DNA of 64,000 nucleotides from Escherichia coli (GTDB lineage Bacteria > Pseudomonadota > Gammaproteobacteria > Enterobacterales > Enterobacteriaceae). The DNA lies in the NCBI RefSeq assembly GCF_001677475.2, contig NZ_CP015229.1; one strand, 5' to 3'. The position numbers and the translations under genes were made by a program. Shown piece after piece: positions 15,166 through 23,116 of the stretch (position 1 is the first letter of the stretch; the number at the start of each line of letters is the position of its first letter). Under the pieces are notes generated by a model. That model saw only the letters and a list, made by a program, of their open reading frames with translations, was not told where the DNA came from and did not search any database.

Positions 15166-16971
15166 CTACTCAAATTCATCCCAGCCGTCCAGCTGGCGTC
15201 GTTCTTGTTGCATTTCACGCTGGAAAATCTCTTCCAGTTCGCGTCGGGCTTCCCTGGCGCGAGAAATTTGTACGGTATCGGCATGCATTGGGATGAGCTC
15301 ACGCAACATCCGCATATCCAGGCGACGAAAATGCAGCTGCGCCCGCTGTGCCTGATGCGGATGCATGCCAAGCGTGACCAGCGTCTTGCGCCCCAGCTCT
15401 AACGCACTGGAGAATGTCTCACGAGAAAACTGCGTCACCCCTGCCTGTAATAACTCATGCGCCTCCACACGTCCGCGCGCTCGCGCAAGAATATGTAAAT
15501 GCGGAAAGTGCTGCTGGCATATTTCCACCAGTTTCATGGTGTCTTCCGGCTCGTTACAGGTAATGACGATAGACTCAGCGGCCTCTGCACCCGCAGAACG
15601 TAAAAGATCTACCTGCGTGGCGTCGCCGTAATAAACTTTGTAGCCATATTTACGCATCAGGTTAACGGCGCTGATATCCCGCTCCAGCACGGTAATGCGC
15701 ATTTTATTTGCCATCAGCAAACGACCAATCACCTGACCAAAACGTCCAAAGCCCACGACAATGACCTGCGGTTTATCATCGTTGACCCACGGTTTTTCAT
15801 CCTCTTCTTCCGGTCCGTTAAACTGGCGAGATAGCCATTTATCTACCAGCTTCATCAGCAGCGGCGTGGTCATCATGGAAAGCGTCACCGTCACCAGTAA
15901 CAGCGCCATCTGGTCGCCATGGAATAAGCGTTGTGAAGAAGCGGTAGAAAAGAGCACAAAGGCAAACTCACCGCCCTGACTCAACACGCCAGCAAACTGC
16001 ATCCGCTCTGAGCTACGCACGCCATACAGTCGCGCCAGCAGATACAGCACGAGAATTTTCACCGCCACCAGCACAACCACAGCTATCACTACCCACAACA
16101 GATGGGTATAAAGCACCCCGAGGTTGAGCGACATGCCAACAGAGATAAAGAACAAACCGAGCAGCAAGCCTTTGAAGGGATCGATAGCCGTTTCCAGTTC
16201 GTGGCGATATTCGCTTTCTGCCAGCAACACGCCCGCAATAAACGTACCAAGCGCCATCGACAACCCCAGCGCATCCATAAATAACGCGGAACCCAACACC
16301 AGCAGCAGCGTCGCGGCGGTGAACACTTCCCGCACGCCAGAAGCTGCAATAAAACGGAATACCGGACGCAGTAAATAGCGCCCGCCAATCAGCATGCCGA
16401 CAAACGCCAGCACCTTCATGCCGATCTTCATCCAGTCGAAATGTTCGTCTGCCGACCCCGCCAACAACGGCACTAACGCCAGTGCCGGGATCACCGCCAG
16501 ATCCTGAAACAGCAGTACCGAGAAACCTAACTGGCCGGATTCGCTGCGATTCATCCCTTTCTCACGCATCAGTTGCAGTGCCATTGCGGTTGAGGACATC
16601 GCAAGGCCAATGCCACCGACCACCGCCGCCTGCCAGGCGAAATCCATCAGCATCAATAATCCCGCCAGTAACGCCGCGCTTAGCAGCACCTGTGCCGCGC
16701 CTACGCCAAAAATCGAACGCCGCAGTTGCCAAAGCTTGGAAGGATTCAACTCAAGGCCGATGATAAACATCAGGAACACCACGCCGAGTTCCGAAAAGTG
16801 GAGGATCTCATCGACGTCGCTAATAAAACCCAGCCCCCACGGGCCAATTGCAATCCCTGCCAGCAAATATCCCAACACAGCGCCAATACCCAGCCGCGAT
16901 GCCAGCGGCACCGCAGCCACCGCCGCGAAGAGAAACAACACTCCTGCGAGTAAAAAATCGGAACCTTCCAT
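15166..16971 (-). CDS. kefB: Glutathione-regulated K+ efflux system protein KefB
   Basis: 601-aa ORF; polytopic N-terminal CPA2 antiporter domain plus C-terminal RCK/KTN domain ([11 protein letters not shown]). Confidence 0.95.
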
Positions 16972-17525
16972 CAGCGGCCTCCTGGAGACAGCGGATTTGC
17001 CAGCCAGTCACCGTAGGCTCTGGCGTGACTCGCCAGCTCCTGTGCGCTTTGCCGTCTCGCCCAGTAAATAATGATGGGACTTAACCAATGCATCCGGCAC
17101 ATGCCCGCCGCCAGTTCAAAGGGACGCAGAACATCGCTCATCGGGTAGCGATTCAATGCGTCATAACGGTAAGCACTTTCCGGCTCGCCGGTGGTAATCA
17201 CGCTACGCCAGTACTTTCCCGCCAGTTGGTTTCCTCCCGGCCCGCTGGCAAAACCACGGCTTAATACCCGGTCCAGCCACTCTTTCAGTAGTGCCGGGCA
17301 GCTATAGGTATAAAGAGGATGCTGAAAGACAATCACCTCGTGCTCGCGCAGTAATGCCTGCTCACGGGGGATATCAATAAAAAAGTCGGGATAGTGCGCG
17401 TAAAGGTCGTGCACGGTAACATTGCTGAGCTGCGTGGCCGGTTTAAGCAGTACCCGGTTTGCCACCGAGTCCTGAGATTCCGGATGGGCATACAGCAGCA
17501 AAACTTTCGCTGGCTGAGACATCAT
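16971..17525 (-). CDS. kefG: KefB ancillary protein KefG (flavodoxin-like quinone oxidoreductase fold)
   Basis: 184-aa [23 protein letters not shown]; stop overlaps kefB start. Confidence 0.9.
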
Positions 17526-17652
17526 CCCCCTCCCGGTATGGTTTTTGTGTATAGTCGCTGTTTTGGGCTACCATTGCGCCCGGTGCGGCAGCTCGCCCAT
17601 ACATTACATTATCATAATGATAAGTTAACATAGTCTGAACATACGGCACCTT

Positions 17653-19566
17653 ATGATTGTTTTCTCCTCGTTACAAATTCGTCGCGGCGTGCGCGTCCTG
17701 CTGGATAATGCCACCGCCACCATCAACCCCGGGCAGAAAGTCGGCCTGGTGGGTAAAAACGGCTGTGGTAAATCTACCCTGCTGGCATTGCTGAAAAATG
17801 AAATCAGCGCCGACGGCGGCAGCTACACCTTTCCGGGAAGCTGGCAACTGGCGTGGGTGAATCAGGAAACGCCGGCGTTACCGCAAGCGGCGCTGGAATA
17901 TGTCATTGACGGCGACCGTGAATATCGTCAACTGGAAGCGCAGCTGCACGACGCCAACGAACGTAACGACGGGCACGCCATTGCGACCATTCATGGCAAG
18001 CTGGATGCTATTGACGCATGGAGTATTCGCTCCCGTGCCGCCAGCCTGCTGCACGGCCTCGGTTTCAGCAATGAACAACTGGAGCGCCCGGTAAGTGATT
18101 TCTCCGGTGGCTGGCGTATGCGTCTTAACCTTGCCCAGGCGCTAATTTGCCGTTCAGACTTGCTGCTGCTCGACGAACCGACTAACCACCTCGATCTCGA
18201 TGCCGTTATCTGGCTGGAAAAATGGCTGAAGAGCTATCAGGGCACGCTGATCCTGATCTCTCACGACCGCGACTTCCTCGATCCGATCGTCGATAAAATT
18301 ATTCATATCGAACAACAAAGCATGTTCGAGTACACCGGCAACTACAGTTCGTTTGAAGTACAGCGCGCCACCCGTCTGGCGCAGCAACAAGCGATGTATG
18401 AAAGCCAGCAGGAACGCGTGGCACATCTGCAAAGTTATATCGATCGTTTCCGTGCCAAAGCCACCAAAGCGAAGCAGGCCCAGAGCCGCATTAAGATGCT
18501 GGAGCGTATGGAGCTGATTGCCCCCGCGCACGTCGACAATCCGTTCCGCTTTAGCTTCCGCGCGCCGGAAAGCCTGCCAAATCCGTTACTGAAGATGGAA
18601 AAGGTCAGCGCAGGCTATGGCGATCGCATTATTCTCGACTCGATTAAACTAAATCTGGTCCCCGGCTCGCGCATTGGTCTGCTAGGCCGCAACGGTGCGG
18701 GTAAATCGACATTAATCAAACTGTTAGCCGGTGAACTTGCGCCAGTCAGCGGTGAAATTGGTCTGGCGAAAGGGATCAAGCTCGGCTACTTCGCCCAGCA
18801 TCAACTGGAATACCTGCGCGCCGACGAATCGCCTATTCAACATCTGGCACGTTTAGCGCCGCAGGAGCTGGAGCAAAAACTGCGTGATTACCTCGGCGGC
18901 TTTGGTTTCCAGGGCGATAAAGTAACCGAAGAAACGCGCCGCTTTTCCGGTGGGGAAAAAGCCCGCCTGGTGCTGGCATTAATTGTCTGGCAGCGTCCGA
19001 ATCTGCTGCTGCTCGACGAACCGACTAACCACCTTGACCTCGACATGCGTCAGGCACTCACCGAAGCATTAATCGAGTTCGAAGGCGCGCTGGTTGTCGT
19101 CTCGCACGACCGTCATTTGCTGCGTTCCACCACTGACGATCTCTACCTGGTTCACGATCGTAAAGTCGAACCGTTCGACGGCGATCTGGAAGATTATCAA
19201 CAGTGGTTGAGCGACGTACAAAAGCAGGAAAACCAGACCGACGAAGCGCCAAAAGAGAACGCAAACAGCGCCCAGGCACGTAAAGATCAGAAGCGTCGGG
19301 AAGCGGAGCTGCGTGCGCAAACCCAACCGCTGCGTAAAGAGATCGCCCGTCTGGAAAAAGAGATGGAAAAGCTGAACGCACAGCTGGCGCAGGCGGAAGA
19401 GAAACTCGGCGACAGCGAACTGTATGACCAGAGCCGTAAAGCGGAGTTGACCGCCTGCCTGCAACAGCAAGCCAGCGCCAAATCCGGCCTGGAAGAGTGC
19501 GAAATGGCATGGCTGGAAGCCCAGGAGCAGCTTGAGCAGATGCTGCTGGAAGGCCAAAGCAACTGA
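17653..19566 (+). CDS. yheS: ABC-F family ATPase (translation-associated), two ABC cassettes
   Basis: 637-aa ORF with two Walker A motifs (GKNGCGKST, GRNGAGKST), two LSGG signatures and charged C-terminal coiled coil. Confidence 0.93.
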   Translation: MIVFSSLQIRRGVRVLLDNATATINPGQKVGLVGKNGCGKSTLLALLKNEISADGGSYTFPGSWQLAWVNQETPALPQAALEYVIDGDREYRQLEAQLHDANERNDGHAIATIHGKLDAIDAWSIRSRAASLLHGLGFSNEQLERPVSDFSGGWRMRLNLAQALICRSDLLLLDEPTNHLDLDAVIWLEKWLKSYQGTLILISHDRDFLDPIVDKIIHIEQQSMFEYTGNYSSFEVQRATRLAQQQAMYESQQERVAHLQSYIDRFRAKATKAKQAQSRIKMLERMELIAPAHVDNPFRFSFRAPESLPNPLLKMEKVSAGYGDRIILDSIKLNLVPGSRIGLLGRNGAGKSTLIKLLAGELAPVSGEIGLAKGIKLGYFAQHQLEYLRADESPIQHLARLAPQELEQKLRDYLGGFGFQGDKVTEETRRFSGGEKARLVLALIVWQRPNLLLLDEPTNHLDLDMRQALTEALIEFEGALVVVSHDRHLLRSTTDDLYLVHDRKVEPFDGDLEDYQQWLSDVQKQENQTDEAPKENANSAQARKDQKRREAELRAQTQPLRKEIARLEKEMEKLNAQLAQAEEKLGDSELYDQSRKAELTACLQQQASAKSGLEECEMAWLEAQEQLEQMLLEGQSN

Positions 19567-20588
19567 TGGCGCAGATAACGACGACCGAGGCCAATGAATT
19601 CAGCAGCAGCGCTGAATTCACCCCTATGCGCGGCTTTAGCAATTGTCATCTCCAAACCATGCTGCCGCGTCTGTTTCGTCGTCAGGTGAAATTCACCCCG
19701 TACTGGCAGCGACTGGAGTTGCCCGACGGCGATTTTGTCGATCTCGCGTGGAGTGAAGACCCTGCACAGGCGCGGCATAAACCGCGTTTAGTGGTGTTTC
19801 ACGGGCTGGAAGGCAGTCTCAATAGCCCTTACGCCCACGGTCTGGTTGAGGCGGCGCAAAAGCGCGGCTGGCTGGGCGTGGTGATGCATTTTCGCGGATG
19901 CAGCGGTGAACCAAACCGTATGCACCGCATTTACCATTCGGGCGAAACCGAAGACGCCAGCTGGTTTTTACGCTGGCTGCAACGCGAATTTGGTCATGCG
20001 CCAACGGCTGCCGTCGGCTATTCGCTCGGCGGTAATATGCTGGCCTGTTTGCTGGCAAAAGAAGGCAATGATCTCCCGGTTGATGCGGCGGTGATTGTCT
20101 CTGCGCCGTTTATGCTGGAAGCCTGTAGCTATCATATGGAAAAGGGCTTTTCCCGCGTTTATCAGCGTTACTTGCTGAACCTGTTAAAAGCCAATGCCGC
20201 GCGCAAGCTGGCAGCCTACCCCGGAACACTGCCGATTAATCTCGCGCAGTTAAAATCAGTACGTCGCATCCGTGAATTTGACGATCTAATCACCGCCAGA
20301 ATTCACGGCTACGCCGACGCTATCGACTATTATCGTCAGTGTAGCGCCATGCCGATGCTGAACCGGATCGCCAAACCGACGCTGATTATTCACGCCAAAG
20401 ACGATCCGTTTATGGATCATCAGGTGATCCCGAAACCGGAAAGTCTCCCCCCGCAGGTGGAGTATCAACTGACTGAACATGGCGGTCATGTTGGCTTTAT
20501 TGGCGGTACATTACTTCATCCGCAAATGTGGCTGGAGTCACGCATTCCTGACTGGTTAACAACGTATCTGGAGGCGAAATCATGTTGA
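19566..20588 (+). CDS. yheT: Predicted alpha/beta-fold hydrolase YheT
   Basis: 340-aa ORF; start overlaps yheS stop (ATGA); GYSLGG nucleophile-elbow motif. Confidence 0.85.
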
Positions 20589-20800
20589 TTCCGTGGCAAG
20601 ACCTCTCCCCCGAAACGCTGGAAAATTTAATTGAAAGCTTTGTGTTACGTGAAGGCACCGATTATGGTGAACATGAGCGTACACTTGAACAGAAAGTCGC
20701 CGACGTCAAACGCCAGCTACAGTGCGGAGAAGCGGTGCTGGTATGGTCGGAGCTGCACGAAACGGTCAATATTATGCCGCGCAGTCAGTTTCGCGAATAG
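20582..20800 (+). CDS. yheU: UPF0270 small protein YheU
   Basis: 72-aa ORF overlapping yheT stop by 7 nt. Confidence 0.8.
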
Positions 20801-20853
20801 CCTGCAACCGTCGGCGGACGAGATAATAATGATAGCTAAGTCATGGAGTTACT

Positions 20854-21723
20854 ATGTCTGCCAAACATCCGGTCATTGCGGTAACAGGATCCAGCGGCGC
20901 GGGGACCACCACCACCAGCCTCGCGTTTCGTAAAATATTCGCGCAGTTAAATCTGCATGCAGCTGAGGTGGAAGGCGACAGTTTTCACCGTTACACCCGC
21001 CCGGAAATGGACATGGCGATCCGCAAAGCGCGCGACGCCGGGCGGCATATCAGCTACTTCGGCCCCGAAGCGAACGACTTCGGCCTGCTGGAACAAACCT
21101 TCATTGAATACGGTCAGAGCGGCAAAGGGAAATCTCGCAAATATCTGCATACCTACGATGAAGCCGTACCGTGGAATCAGGTACCGGGGACATTCACCCC
21201 CTGGCAATCTTTACCGGAACCCACTGATGTACTGTTTTATGAAGGTTTACACGGCGGCGTAGTCACGCCACAGCATAACGTTGCGCAGCATGTGGACTTA
21301 CTGGTCGGCGTGGTGCCTATCGTTAACCTTGAGTGGATTCAAAAACTGATCCGCGACACCAGCGAGCGCGGGCACTCACGAGAAGCAGTGATGGACTCGG
21401 TAGTGCGTTCAATGGAAGACTATATCAACTACATCACGCCGCAGTTTTCCCGCACCCATCTTAACTTCCAGCGCGTTCCCACCGTCGACACCTCAAACCC
21501 GTTCGCGGCAAAAGGTATCCCGTCGCTGGATGAAAGCTTTGTGGTGATCCATTTTCGTAATCTGGAAGGGATCGATTTCCCCTGGCTGCTGGCGATGTTG
21601 CAAGGCTCATTCATTTCCCACATCAATACGTTAGTGGTGCCCGGCGGCAAAATGGGTCTGGCAATGGAATTAATTATGCTGCCGCTGGTGCAACGATTGA
21701 TGGAAGGAAAGAAAATCGAGTAA
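20854..21723 (+). CDS. prkB: Phosphoribulokinase homologue
   Basis: 289-aa ORF with N-terminal P-loop VIAVTGSSGAGTTT characteristic of PRK/uridine kinase family. Confidence 0.9.
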   Translation: MSAKHPVIAVTGSSGAGTTTTSLAFRKIFAQLNLHAAEVEGDSFHRYTRPEMDMAIRKARDAGRHISYFGPEANDFGLLEQTFIEYGQSGKGKSRKYLHTYDEAVPWNQVPGTFTPWQSLPEPTDVLFYEGLHGGVVTPQHNVAQHVDLLVGVVPIVNLEWIQKLIRDTSERGHSREAVMDSVVRSMEDYINYITPQFSRTHLNFQRVPTVDTSNPFAAKGIPSLDESFVVIHFRNLEGIDFPWLLAMLQGSFISHINTLVVPGGKMGLAMELIMLPLVQRLMEGKKIE

Positions 21724-21735
21724 CTCTGCTATTAC

Positions 21736-21757
21736 GCCGGATAAAATACTATCCGGC
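21736..21757. repeat. Perfect 8-bp inverted repeat (gccggata...tatccggc), REP-like hairpin between prkB and yhfA
   Basis: Read directly; sits between convergent gene ends. Confidence 0.5.
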
Positions 21758-21777
21758 TTCACAACGGGATAGTTAAA

Positions 21778-22182
21778 TCACGCGGCAACCACTTCATACG
21801 AGTGAGTAATATTCACCGCTTTTTCCAGCATCAACGCCACTGAACAATATTTCTCAGCAGAGAGATCAACCGCACGCGCAACCGCTGCGTCTTTCAGGTC
21901 GCGACCGGTGACGATAAAATGCAGATTAATGTGCGTAAACAGGCGTGGTGCATCTTCGCGGCGTTCAGAGGTCAATTTTACTTCACAATCGACCACATCC
22001 TGACGCCCTTTTTGCAAGATCGAAACCACATCGATGGCACTGCAACCACCCGCCGCCATCAACACCATTTCCATCGGACTTGGTGCTTTATCGCCTGAGT
22101 TGCCGTCCATTAAAATCTGGTGACCAGAGGCGGATTCGCCCAGAAAAGTTAACCCTTCGACCCACTTCACTCGCGCTTGCAT
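21778..22182 (-). CDS. yhfA: OsmC-family protein YhfA
   Basis: 134-aa ORF; OsmC/Ohr-like size and conserved Cys. Confidence 0.85.
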   Translation of the reverse strand: MQARVKWVEGLTFLGESASGHQILMDGNSGDKAPSPMEMVLMAAGGCSAIDVVSILQKGRQDVVDCEVKLTSERREDAPRLFTHINLHFIVTGRDLKDAAVARAVDLSAEKYCSVALMLEKAVNITHSYEVVAA

Positions 22183-22350
22183 TTTTGCTACTCCACTGCG
22201 TCAATTTTCCTGACAGAGTACGCGTACTAACCAAATCGCGCAACGGAAGGCGACCTGGGTCATGCTGAAGCGAGACACCAGGAGACACAAAGCGAAAGCT
22301 ATGCTAAAACAGTCAGGATGCTACAGTAATACATTGATGTACTGCATGTA

Positions 22351-22366
22351 TGCAAAGGACGTCACA
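22351..22366 (+). promoter_or_regulatory. Candidate CRP half-site-bearing operator in crp leader (TGCAA-N6-TCACA)
   Basis: Sequence tgcaaaggacgtcaca ~125 bp upstream of crp ATG; crp is known to be autoregulated via sites in this region. Confidence 0.45.
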
Positions 22367-22483
22367 TTACCGTGCAGTACAGTTGATAGCCCCTTCCCAG
22401 GTAGCGGGAAGCATATTTCGGCAATCCAGAGACAGCGGCGTTATCTGGCTCTGGAGAAAGCTTATAACAGAGGATAACCGCGC

Positions 22484-23116
22484 ATGGTGCTTGGCAAACC
22501 GCAAACAGACCCGACTCTCGAATGGTTCTTGTCTCATTGCCACATTCATAAGTACCCATCCAAGAGCACGCTTATTCACCAGGGTGAAAAAGCGGAAACG
22601 CTGTACTACATCGTTAAAGGCTCTGTGGCAGTGCTGATCAAAGACGAAGAGGGTAAAGAAATGATCCTCTCCTATCTGAATCAGGGTGATTTTATTGGCG
22701 AACTGGGCCTGTTTGAAGAGGGCCAGGAACGTAGCGCATGGGTACGTGCGAAAACCGCCTGTGAAGTGGCTGAAATTTCGTACAAAAAATTTCGCCAATT
22801 GATTCAGGTAAACCCGGACATTCTGATGCGTCTGTCTGCACAGATGGCGCGTCGTCTGCAAGTCACTTCAGAGAAAGTGGGCAACCTGGCGTTCCTCGAC
22901 GTGACGGGCCGCATTGCACAGACTCTGCTGAACCTGGCAAAACAACCAGATGCTATGACTCACCCGGACGGTATGCAAATCAAAATTACCCGTCAGGAAA
23001 TTGGTCAGATTGTCGGCTGTTCTCGTGAAACCGTGGGACGCATTCTGAAGATGCTGGAAGATCAGAACCTGATCTCTGCACACGGTAAAACCATCGTCGT
23101 TTACGGCACTCGTTAA
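22484..23116 (+). CDS. crp: cAMP receptor protein (catabolite activator protein)
   Basis: 210-aa [51 protein letters not shown]...[30 protein letters not shown]. Confidence 0.98.

Follow-up and report, generated by a model that had tools for sequence, protein, structure and literature searches.

The yheS-yheT-yheU locus of Escherichia coli: a conserved yheT-yheU pair and a yheS/yheT overlap found only in Escherichia among sampled genomes

INTRODUCTION

The closest described counterpart of the locus analysed here is the E. coli K-12 operon presented in a preprint by Ousalem et al. (2023, bioRxiv 10.1101/2023.06.11.543863), where yheS, yheT and yheU form a co-transcribed operon, prkB, which lies downstream, is treated as co-cistronic with yheS, and yheT and yheU are said to adjoin yheS often in other organisms. 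The product of the first gene, YheS, has been solved on the ribosome (PDB 9vvi and 9nlh) and is treated in published work as acting there alone (Chadani et al. 2024; Iso et al. 2026). Release of the SecM arrest, in particular, was obtained with purified YheS alone in the reconstituted PURE system (PUREfrex). The YheS subfamily is reported from several phyla, a C-terminal extension being the published rule that separates YheS from YbiT, and what YheS does in the cell's physiology is still described as open in the literature. Our literature search returned no report of a YheT assay; YheT, YheU, UPF0270, DUF2390 and the ABHD relatives appeared in gene lists only or not at all.

An earlier note, made from the letters of the same DNA, had proposed that the three genes are co-translated and that their overlaps mark the hydrolase YheT as a dedicated partner of the ABC-F protein, possibly with a small-molecule or peptidyl-tRNA-related function. 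Here, we examine the locus and its relatives in the light of that proposal.

RESULTS

Organization of the locus

The window, i.e. the whole stretch of 64,000 nt of E. coli DNA that was analysed, carries yheS-yheT-yheU(-prkB), an ordinary transcription unit of Escherichia for which annotation already exists: genes, gene order and the statement of co-transcription are all shared with the K-12 operon of Ousalem et al. (2023), no difference from it was found at the locus itself, and the RefSeq annotation is identical. The genes, all on the + strand, are yheS (17653-19566, 637 aa), yheT (19566-20588, 340 aa) and yheU (20582-20800, 72 aa); on these coordinates the open reading frames, the sequence and the annotation that RefSeq gives for an E. 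coli genome of 98.7% identity agree. The divergent intergenic region between kefG and yheS (17526-17652) presumably holds the yheS promoter and 5′ UTR. A promoter scan found no + strand site in it, and the yheS ATG is preceded by no recognisable Shine-Dalgarno (SD) sequence (best anti-SD duplex of -1.7 kcal/mol).

At the other end, prkB (20854-21723, + strand), a phosphoribulokinase homologue with its own GGAG, starts 53 nt after yheU and is probably the last gene of the transcription unit. From 20800 to 20854 a sequence scan detected nothing terminator-like on the + strand, and the yheT-yheU-prkB adjacency is kept in Enterobacterales and Vibrionaceae. Further searches gave little else: there was no Rfam match across 16900-22600, even at E values up to 1; among the anti-phage defence models of PADLOC, YheS displayed generic ATPase similarity only, and YheT, YheU and DUF2390 had no match; as to repeats, nothing relevant was seen besides a Walker B duplication inside yheS.

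The three products

YheS is a ribosome-binding ABC-F factor of the YheS subfamily, the one already solved on the ribosome. The Pfam family ABC_tran (PF00005) matches two stretches of it (E = 2e-50), the ABC_tran_Xtn/PtIM linker (PF12848) covers residues 217-299 (E = 1.7e-29), and the charged C-terminal extension is matched by ABC_tran_CTD over residues 560-622 (E = 6e-7; 30 bits, below the cut-off of 32). Together with the match to the NCBIfam equivalog PRK10636 (1407 bits for a cut-off of 917, residues 1-636), the latter places the protein on the YheS side of the rule separating it from YbiT. Further matches of the sequence are the YheS chains in the ribosome complexes 9vvi and 9nlh, and cassettes, PtIM linker and C-terminal extension are all shared with the published YheS (Chadani et al. 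2024; Iso et al. 2026), from which no difference was found. On the basis of Pfam, none of its 14 matches is to a membrane-domain family. The description of an ABC-F protein with two ABC cassettes, a charged C-terminal tail and no membrane domain was thus correct.

The assignment of YheT to the alpha/beta hydrolases also holds, with matches to Abhydrolase_1 (PF00561, 143 bits) and to NCBIfam PRK10985 (648 bits for a cut-off of 267, residues 15-338). The protein has a GxSxG nucleophile elbow, G151-Y-S153-L-G155, and its Ser153/Asp280/His308 triad is invariant across 60 diverse homologues with identities as low as 36%. Residues 1-14 lack conservation and are predicted to be disordered. No relative was found in the PDB by sequence. 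In a Foldseek search, the AlphaFold2 model (pLDDT 93.8) was similar to many hydrolases with a probability of 1.0, the nearest solved folds being monoglyceride lipases and aryl esterases, at about 15% identity and a TM score of about 0.5 to any solved structure. The fold, nucleophile elbow and Ser/Asp/His triad are common to YheT and to lipid esterases (the monoglyceride lipases Rv0183 and human MGL, ABHD6 and aryl esterases), and the top 50 structural matches listed consist of lipases, esterases, haloperoxidases and dehalogenases. YheT presumably belongs with ABHD1/ABHD3 and yeast Eht1/Eeb1 in the family that UniProt names 'AB hydrolase 4'. From sequence and model, YheT is predicted to be an active alpha/beta serine hydrolase, and its most probable activity, as the model suggests, would be that of an esterase or lipase on small acyl esters. 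A macrolide esterase was considered and rejected: EstT and EstX came only at ranks 22 and 28, with TM scores of 0.42-0.44, like generic hydrolases.

YheU, the 72-aa open reading frame, is the small protein that had been described. It matches the UPF0270 family (PF06794) and carries the conserved motifs LREGTDYG and SELHE; among solved structures it matches only 1Y0N, the structure of the UPF0270 protein PA3463 of Pseudomonas aeruginosa, whose fold it shares and which is its closest known relative listed. The suggested peptidyl-tRNA-related role found no echo in these comparisons. YheT and YheU match only Abhydrolase families and UPF0270, respectively, the listed folds of YheT are lipase/esterase-like, and neither protein displays sequence or fold similarity to the peptidyl-tRNA hydrolase families (Pth, Pth2, ArfB/RF-like) in Pfam, NCBIfam or the structure search.

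The yheT/yheU junction

The 7-nt overlap between yheT and yheU was borne out (ATGTTGA, 20582-20588, + strand). A strong SD sequence, GGAGG (20570-20574, + strand; anti-SD duplex of -9.3 kcal/mol), lies within the 3′ end of yheT and is separated from the yheU ATG by 7 nt. Tight junctions of this type are the rule: of 149 loci, 124 have the yheU start at a distance of -7 to +8 nt from the yheT stop, the values including -4 (ATGA or GTGA) in 75, -7 in 5, -1 in 7, 0 in 6 and +1 in 15. The two genes stay together even where their order is swapped (L087). Judging from these sequences, the ATGTTGA of E. coli is a variant of a junction conserved family-wide, and yheT-yheU appears as an evolutionarily stable, tightly coupled unit. 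Distant YheT-like genes (41% identity or less) are solitary, with neither an ABC-F nor a yheU neighbour. Among 10 long YheT homologues checked, none is a fusion to an ABC-F protein; they are tandem hydrolases or BamB-like, GDSL or DUF2390 fusions.

The yheS/yheT junction in E. coli

The earlier note was right that the yheS stop and the yheT start overlap, but not as the ATGA that it gave: bases 19563-19569 read CTGATGG, so that the junction is TGATG (19564-19568, + strand), where the stop TGA (19564-19566) and the start ATG (19566-19568) share 1 nt. This ATG is the sole ATG, GTG or TTG between the in-frame stop TGA at 19533-19535 and the codon of the invariant F18, and the sequence comparison indicates that the start at 19566 is secure. 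Initiation at M21 was rejected because the invariant F18 and P20 precede it and relatives have L or I at that position. The SD-like sequence available to yheT, GGAAGG (19548-19553, + strand), lies within yheS, 12 nt 5′ of the ATG; it is weak (anti-SD duplex of -5.5 kcal/mol) and its spacing is suboptimal.

Overlaps of this kind are common in the region. Around the locus, 50 kb of annotated E. coli sequence contain 45 co-directional neighbour pairs, of which 11 (24%) overlap; the overlaps in yheS-yheT-yheU are not above chance expectation. In the same 50 kb, the functionally unrelated genes of rpe-gph-trpS (dam operon) have stop/start overlaps of 1-8 nt, that of gph/trpS being 8 nt.

Since the E. 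coli genes abut or overlap, co-transcription and termination-reinitiation coupling are plausible, and the preprint describes an operon; the co-translation proposed in the earlier note stands to that extent, but the yheS/yheT overlap on which it partly relied is not conserved beyond Escherichia in our sample.

Spacing of yheS and yheT in 80 species genomes

To what extent the yheS/yheT overlap is confined to Escherichia can be seen from 80 species genomes, whose loci are not phylogenetically independent. An overlap was found in one only (E. albertii), and TGATG junctions occur, among the loci examined, in E. coli (L001, L117) and E. albertii (L002) alone. A gene-free gap of 15-400 nt separates yheS from yheT in 6 genomes; in 21 the gap is 0.4-1.3 kb, with a divergent LysE-family gene (17) or, in Vibrionaceae, DUF2390 (4); in 22 it is 1.3-7 kb and contains unrelated genes. 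In 24 others yheS is absent within 6 kb or more upstream of yheT, and in the last 6 the upstream flank is too short to judge. An opposite-strand gene stands directly 5′ of yheT in 47 of the 80 genomes and also in Salmonella, where a ydhR-like gene separates the two. Most Enterobacterales besides Escherichia, Salmonella included, show one of four arrangements instead: a hairpin resembling a terminator, a divergent gene of the LysE family, an island of 3-6 kb, or no yheS up to 6 kb upstream.

In near relatives, a hairpin with a T-run behind it stands immediately 3′ of the yheS stop (fold z = -4.3 in L006 and -4.85 in L078), and a conserved promoter-like sequence, GGTATAGTA, is found some 35 nt upstream of the yheT start codon. 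This promoter-like site, together with the 'Internal Promoter' (an RNA polymerase binding site) that Genomic SELEX reports between yheS and yheT of E. coli and the SD sequences that yheU and prkB have of their own, could mean that yheT-yheU(-prkB) is expressed in E. coli mainly from a promoter located within the 3′ portion of yheS, and through its own ribosome-binding sites, the 1-nt overlap having no coupling effect. We consider this highly improbable: the GGTATAGTA spacer of the relatives is absent from the window, a consensus scan found no promoter-like hexamer pair in the 3′ end of yheS, the yheT SD sequence is both weak and 12 nt away from its ATG, and co-transcription is described in the preprint (Ousalem et al. 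2023).

The cluster in non-enteric gammaproteobacteria

Because the genome scan, built on a 15-sequence YheT alignment, yielded mostly Enterobacterales, a metagenome scan anchored on a marine YheU was added. Of 29 non-enteric gammaproteobacterial loci (contigs), 23 have yheS upstream of yheT/yheU on the same strand. A compact yheS-TIGR02444(DUF2390)-yheT-yheU cluster with overlaps of 1-8 nt is frequent there (L082, L083/84, L130, L154, L163 and L168). In one lineage, a DUF2390-YheT fusion, present in contigs of several sequencing runs, lies directly 3′ of yheS, its start overlapping the yheS stop by 1 nt, and is followed by yheU. In L156/L165, yheU itself overlaps yheS, by 4 nt. The sequences of these clusters keep yheS with yheT/yheU, and an older functional link is therefore possible; the adjacency would fit an ancestral functional operon.

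Carried further, these arrangements could point to an ancient functional module, in which YheS, YheT and YheU would serve one translation-linked pathway with the TIGR02444/DUF2390 protein, since lost by Enterobacterales, and the E. coli overlap would keep their co-expression stoichiometric; that the role of YheS is still regarded as open leaves room for it. Several observations make this module unlikely, however. The yheS-yheT link is repeatedly interrupted by opposite-strand or unrelated genes, YheS alone suffices in the reconstituted system, and YheT is lipase/esterase-like and unlike any peptidyl-tRNA hydrolase. The YheS subfamily is found in several phyla, whereas the YheU relatives that were recovered and could be placed come from Enterobacterales, Vibrionaceae and Pseudomonas. 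The wider block around yheS-yheT-yheU (slyX, yheV, kefGB, prkB and crp) is syntenic too, so that proximity may be inherited gene order. That the four genes are the remains of an ancient gammaproteobacterial module, of which the E. coli version has been reduced to three, is more doubtful still. No DUF2390 remnant was found in the window (best E = 1.5).

DISCUSSION

To what was known of the operon, the present comparison adds three observations: the yheS/yheT overlap exists in Escherichia only, among the genomes sampled; yheT and yheU are a conserved coupled pair; and in non-enteric relatives a TIGR02444 gene sits between yheS and yheT. The reading that we favour, with a probability of about 0.7, is that the locus is an ordinary, known unit, made of a stable YheT-YheU pair and of a recent packing of yheS against yheT without any partnership between their products. 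YheU would be the conserved small partner of YheT, translated by coupling to the end of yheT. The yheS/yheT overlap would have arisen recently and, in our sample, is peculiar to Escherichia. Judging from the outgroups, Escherichia would have lost the spacer and with it the yheS terminator and the yheT promoter, both still present in near relatives, which would have set the yheT ATG onto the yheS stop codon. With its ATG so placed, E. coli yheT probably receives most of its ribosomes through termination on yheS followed by re-initiation. The junction would thus reflect operon packing and not a mechanistic association of an ABC-F factor with a hydrolase. The claim that the overlap marks a dedicated hydrolase partner found no support in the comparison: among 80 genomes the overlap is limited to Escherichia, genes are frequently interposed, the hairpin and the promoter-like site of close relatives separate the two genes, an internal polymerase site is reported even for E. 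coli, YheS is sufficient by itself on SecM, and the folds closest to YheT are those of lipases and esterases.

To conclude, the comparison lowers the prospect of a functional link between YheS and YheT in E. coli, where the overlap resembles a local accident of packing. If such a link were real, it would provide a housekeeping ABC-F factor with its first accessory enzymes. The most informative subjects would be the YheT-YheU pair itself and the marine gammaproteobacteria and Vibrionaceae that possess the compact cluster.

The yheS-yheT-yheU-prkB locus and its junctions

The locus is of the E. coli type, with kefB-kefG, yheS-yheT-yheU-prkB, yhfA and crp. Gene calls, based on the ORF list, the sequence and the RefSeq annotation of a genome with 98.7% identity over 3.6 kb, place yheS at 17653-19566 (637 aa), yheT at 19566-20588 (340 aa), yheU at 20582-20800 (72 aa) and prkB at 20854-21723 (289 aa). 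That value was the best identity given by positions 17400-21000 against 5,426 complete E. coli genomes, none of which reached 99%; the source therefore has no close match to any of them.

Both gene overlaps described in the earlier note are real, but the first was misread: since 19563-19569 is CTGATGG, the yheS/yheT junction is TGATG (1-nt overlap) and not ATGA. The yheT/yheU overlap is of 7 nt (ATGTTGA), as had been stated. There is little doubt about where yheT starts: from the in-frame stop at 19533-19535 to F18, a residue invariant across 22 enterobacterial homologues, ATG 19566 is the sole start codon. M21 was rejected as an alternative start because L or I is found there in several of these homologues. 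The first 14 residues show no conservation, fall outside the NCBIfam model and are predicted to be disordered.

The transcription unit probably comprises four genes, one more than the earlier note had listed, prkB having been reported as co-cistronic with the operon (Ousalem et al. 2023, bioRxiv 10.1101/2023.06.11.543863). The yheU-prkB gap (20800-20854) is 53 nt long, without a terminator-like site. An internal site for RNA polymerase, between yheS and yheT, is listed by Genomic SELEX.

The YheS and YheT products

YheS carries two ABC_tran domains, the ABC_tran_Xtn linker and a C-terminal ABC_tran_CTD match (Pfam), scores above the cut-off of NCBIfam equivalog PRK10636 and matches the YheS chains of ribosome structures 9vvi and 9nlh. 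Its action on the ribosome and its sufficiency in vitro are known from the literature: purified YheS alone releases SecM arrest in the PURE system. Deletion of yheS left SecM arrest unaffected in the conditions tested, and the stationary-phase restart defect of ettA and uup deletions is absent from the yheS deletion. The subfamily has been reported from Proteobacteria, Bacteroidetes, Cyanobacteria and other groups. Within yheS, a 40-nt direct repeat (18161-18200 and 19004-19043, 38/40 identical) codes for LLLLDEPTNHLDLD, in the Walker B region, in each ABC cassette; an ancient internal duplication would not usually retain so much DNA identity.

YheT belongs to Abhydrolase_1 (Pfam; NCBIfam equivalog PRK10985). 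Its catalytic triad, Ser153 (in GYSLG), Asp280 and His308, shows no variation across 60 homologues with identities down to 36%. A search for a solved structure related by sequence found none; the structure model is confident (pLDDT 93.8) and, among solved structures, the folds closest to it are those of monoglyceride lipases, aryl esterases and other lipases (identity ~15%, TM ~0.5). An acyl-ester substrate is suggested, and nothing in the family or in these folds points to the peptidyl-tRNA chemistry that had been proposed.

Overlap frequency and initiation signals

Of 45 co-directional neighbour pairs in the 50 kb of annotated E. coli sequence that surround the locus, 11 overlap, among them kefG/kefB, yheO/tusD and tusD/tusC (each by 1 nt) and the functionally unrelated gph/trpS (by 8 nt). 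The yheS/yheT overlap is therefore not unusual, and the feature as a whole is already known and ordinary. In the window, kefG/kefB (minus strand, 16971) has the same type of 1-nt stop/start junction as yheS/yheT.

No Shine-Dalgarno sequence is recognisable before yheS (anti-SD duplex of -1.7 kcal/mol). Those of the next three genes are GGAAGG, 12 nt from the yheT ATG (-5.5 kcal/mol), GGAGG, 7 nt from that of yheU (-9.3 kcal/mol), and GGAG, 5 nt from that of prkB (-5.9 kcal/mol). These signals fit a scheme in which E. coli yheT would be translated by re-initiation and yheU by efficient coupled initiation. The co-translation read from the overlaps in the earlier note is plausible in E. coli, but the reading of the yheS/yheT overlap as the mark of a dedicated hydrolase partner is not supported.

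Variation of the yheS-yheT spacing

A YheT-alignment scan with one genome per species gave 80 loci, 71 of them in Enterobacterales and 9 in Vibrionaceae. The order yheT-yheU, then usually prkB, yhfA and crp, is kept in essentially all of them. The distance from yheS stop to yheT start varies and is not conserved: the genes overlap in one genome (E. albertii), are 15-400 nt apart with no intervening gene in six, 0.4-1.3 kb apart in 21 (the gap having a divergent LysE-family gene in 17 and, in 4 Vibrionaceae, a DUF2390 gene) and 1.3-7 kb apart in 22, with unrelated genes in between (nicotinamide phosphoribosyltransferase island, taurine-type ABC transporter, others). No yheS was found within at least 6 kb upstream of yheT in 24 genomes, and the flank was too short to judge in six. 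Among the sampled genomes, the overlap is restricted to Escherichia.

The gap is an insertion hot spot (e.g. L004:3640-6919 and L029:2726-6148), two of its genes being identified by Pfam and the remainder by reading translations. In 47 of the 80 genomes, the immediate upstream neighbour of yheT is the divergent LysE-family gene; it encodes an exporter of ~200 aa (e.g. L017:6338-6958, minus strand) and is missing here from Escherichia. The nicotinamide phosphoribosyltransferase island occurs in Citrobacter, Pluralibacter and Mangrovibacter, a four-gene cluster including a taurine-type periplasmic binding protein in Erwinia, Rahnella, Serratia and Pantoea, and a 73-aa ORF with an opposite-strand ydhR-like gene in Salmonella enterica.

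Three near relatives with short spacers (L024, L006 and L011) have a hairpin and T-run after the yheS stop and a conserved GGTATAGTA ~35 nt upstream of the yheT ATG; in the L024 spacer, a consensus scan called a terminator-like site as well as a promoter-like one. The spacer hairpins are much more stable than shuffled sequence, with z = -4.3 (L006) and z = -4.85 (Photobacterium L078). The simplest reading, with its direction taken from the outgroups, is that Escherichia lost the spacer by deletion, the yheT ATG thereby landing on the yheS stop.

Clusters outside the enterics

Some gene arrangements are consistent with an older link; in its boldest form, yheS, TIGR02444, yheT and yheU would make up an ancient module that acts on an ester linked to the ribosome. 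More distant YheT relatives from marine samples (45-48% identity) are found in compact yheS-TIGR02444(DUF2390)-yheT-yheU clusters with 4- or 8-nt overlaps. In a metagenome scan anchored on marine YheU, yheS was upstream on the same strand in 23 of the 29 non-enteric loci having at least 5 kb upstream, 11 of them also with DUF2390 and the others with inserted Sel1-repeat, flagellin-like, oxidoreductase or transporter genes; among enteric-like loci the figure was only 4 of 14. One lineage, seen on contigs of several sequencing runs, has a DUF2390-YheT fusion (P0135, 480 aa) that at its start shares 1 nt with the yheS stop and is followed by yheU. In two loci without yheT (L165 and the ocean metagenome locus L156:4091-6237), yheU directly overlaps yheS (in L156, 4091-6004 and 6001-6237; 4 nt, ATGA, with a GGAGGA Shine-Dalgarno). 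However, synteny also extends to slyX, yheV and kefGB on the upstream side and to prkB and crp on the downstream side, so that proximity may be inherited order; YheT-like genes whose identity is 41% or lower are solitary, none of 10 long homologues proved to be an ABC-F/YheT fusion and no DUF2390 remnant was found in the window. We consider a module with a ribosome-linked ester as its target improbable.

The TIGR02444/DUF2390 gene between yheS and yheT occurs in Vibrionaceae and marine gammaproteobacterial contigs and usually overlaps both neighbours (L082:4516-5004, L083:4451-5008, L073:6482-6988, L075:6321-6809, L173:5001-6443). The L156 arrangement would amount to direct yheS-yheU coupling. 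One stand-alone YheT-like gene (L085:5001-7819, 41% identity) is convergent with bipA/typA; a genetic interaction of YheS with bipA has been reported, and this neighbourhood is probably due to chance.

yheT and yheU as a conserved pair

The distance from yheT stop to yheU start was measured over 149 loci having both genes. It was -4 nt (ATGA or GTGA) in 75, -7 nt in 5, -1 nt in 7, 0 nt in 6, +1 nt in 15 and +2 to +8 nt in 16, i.e. from -7 to +8 nt in 124 of 149, counts that are descriptive because the loci are phylogenetically non-independent. One locus without yheS (L087:4787-5978) has the reversed order yheU-yheT (23-nt overlap)-prkB, followed by an OsmC-family gene and crp, the two genes remaining paired even after rearrangement. 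From the conservation of the junction and this pairing, we conclude that yheT-yheU is the stable and probably translationally coupled unit; YheT and YheU may well be partners.
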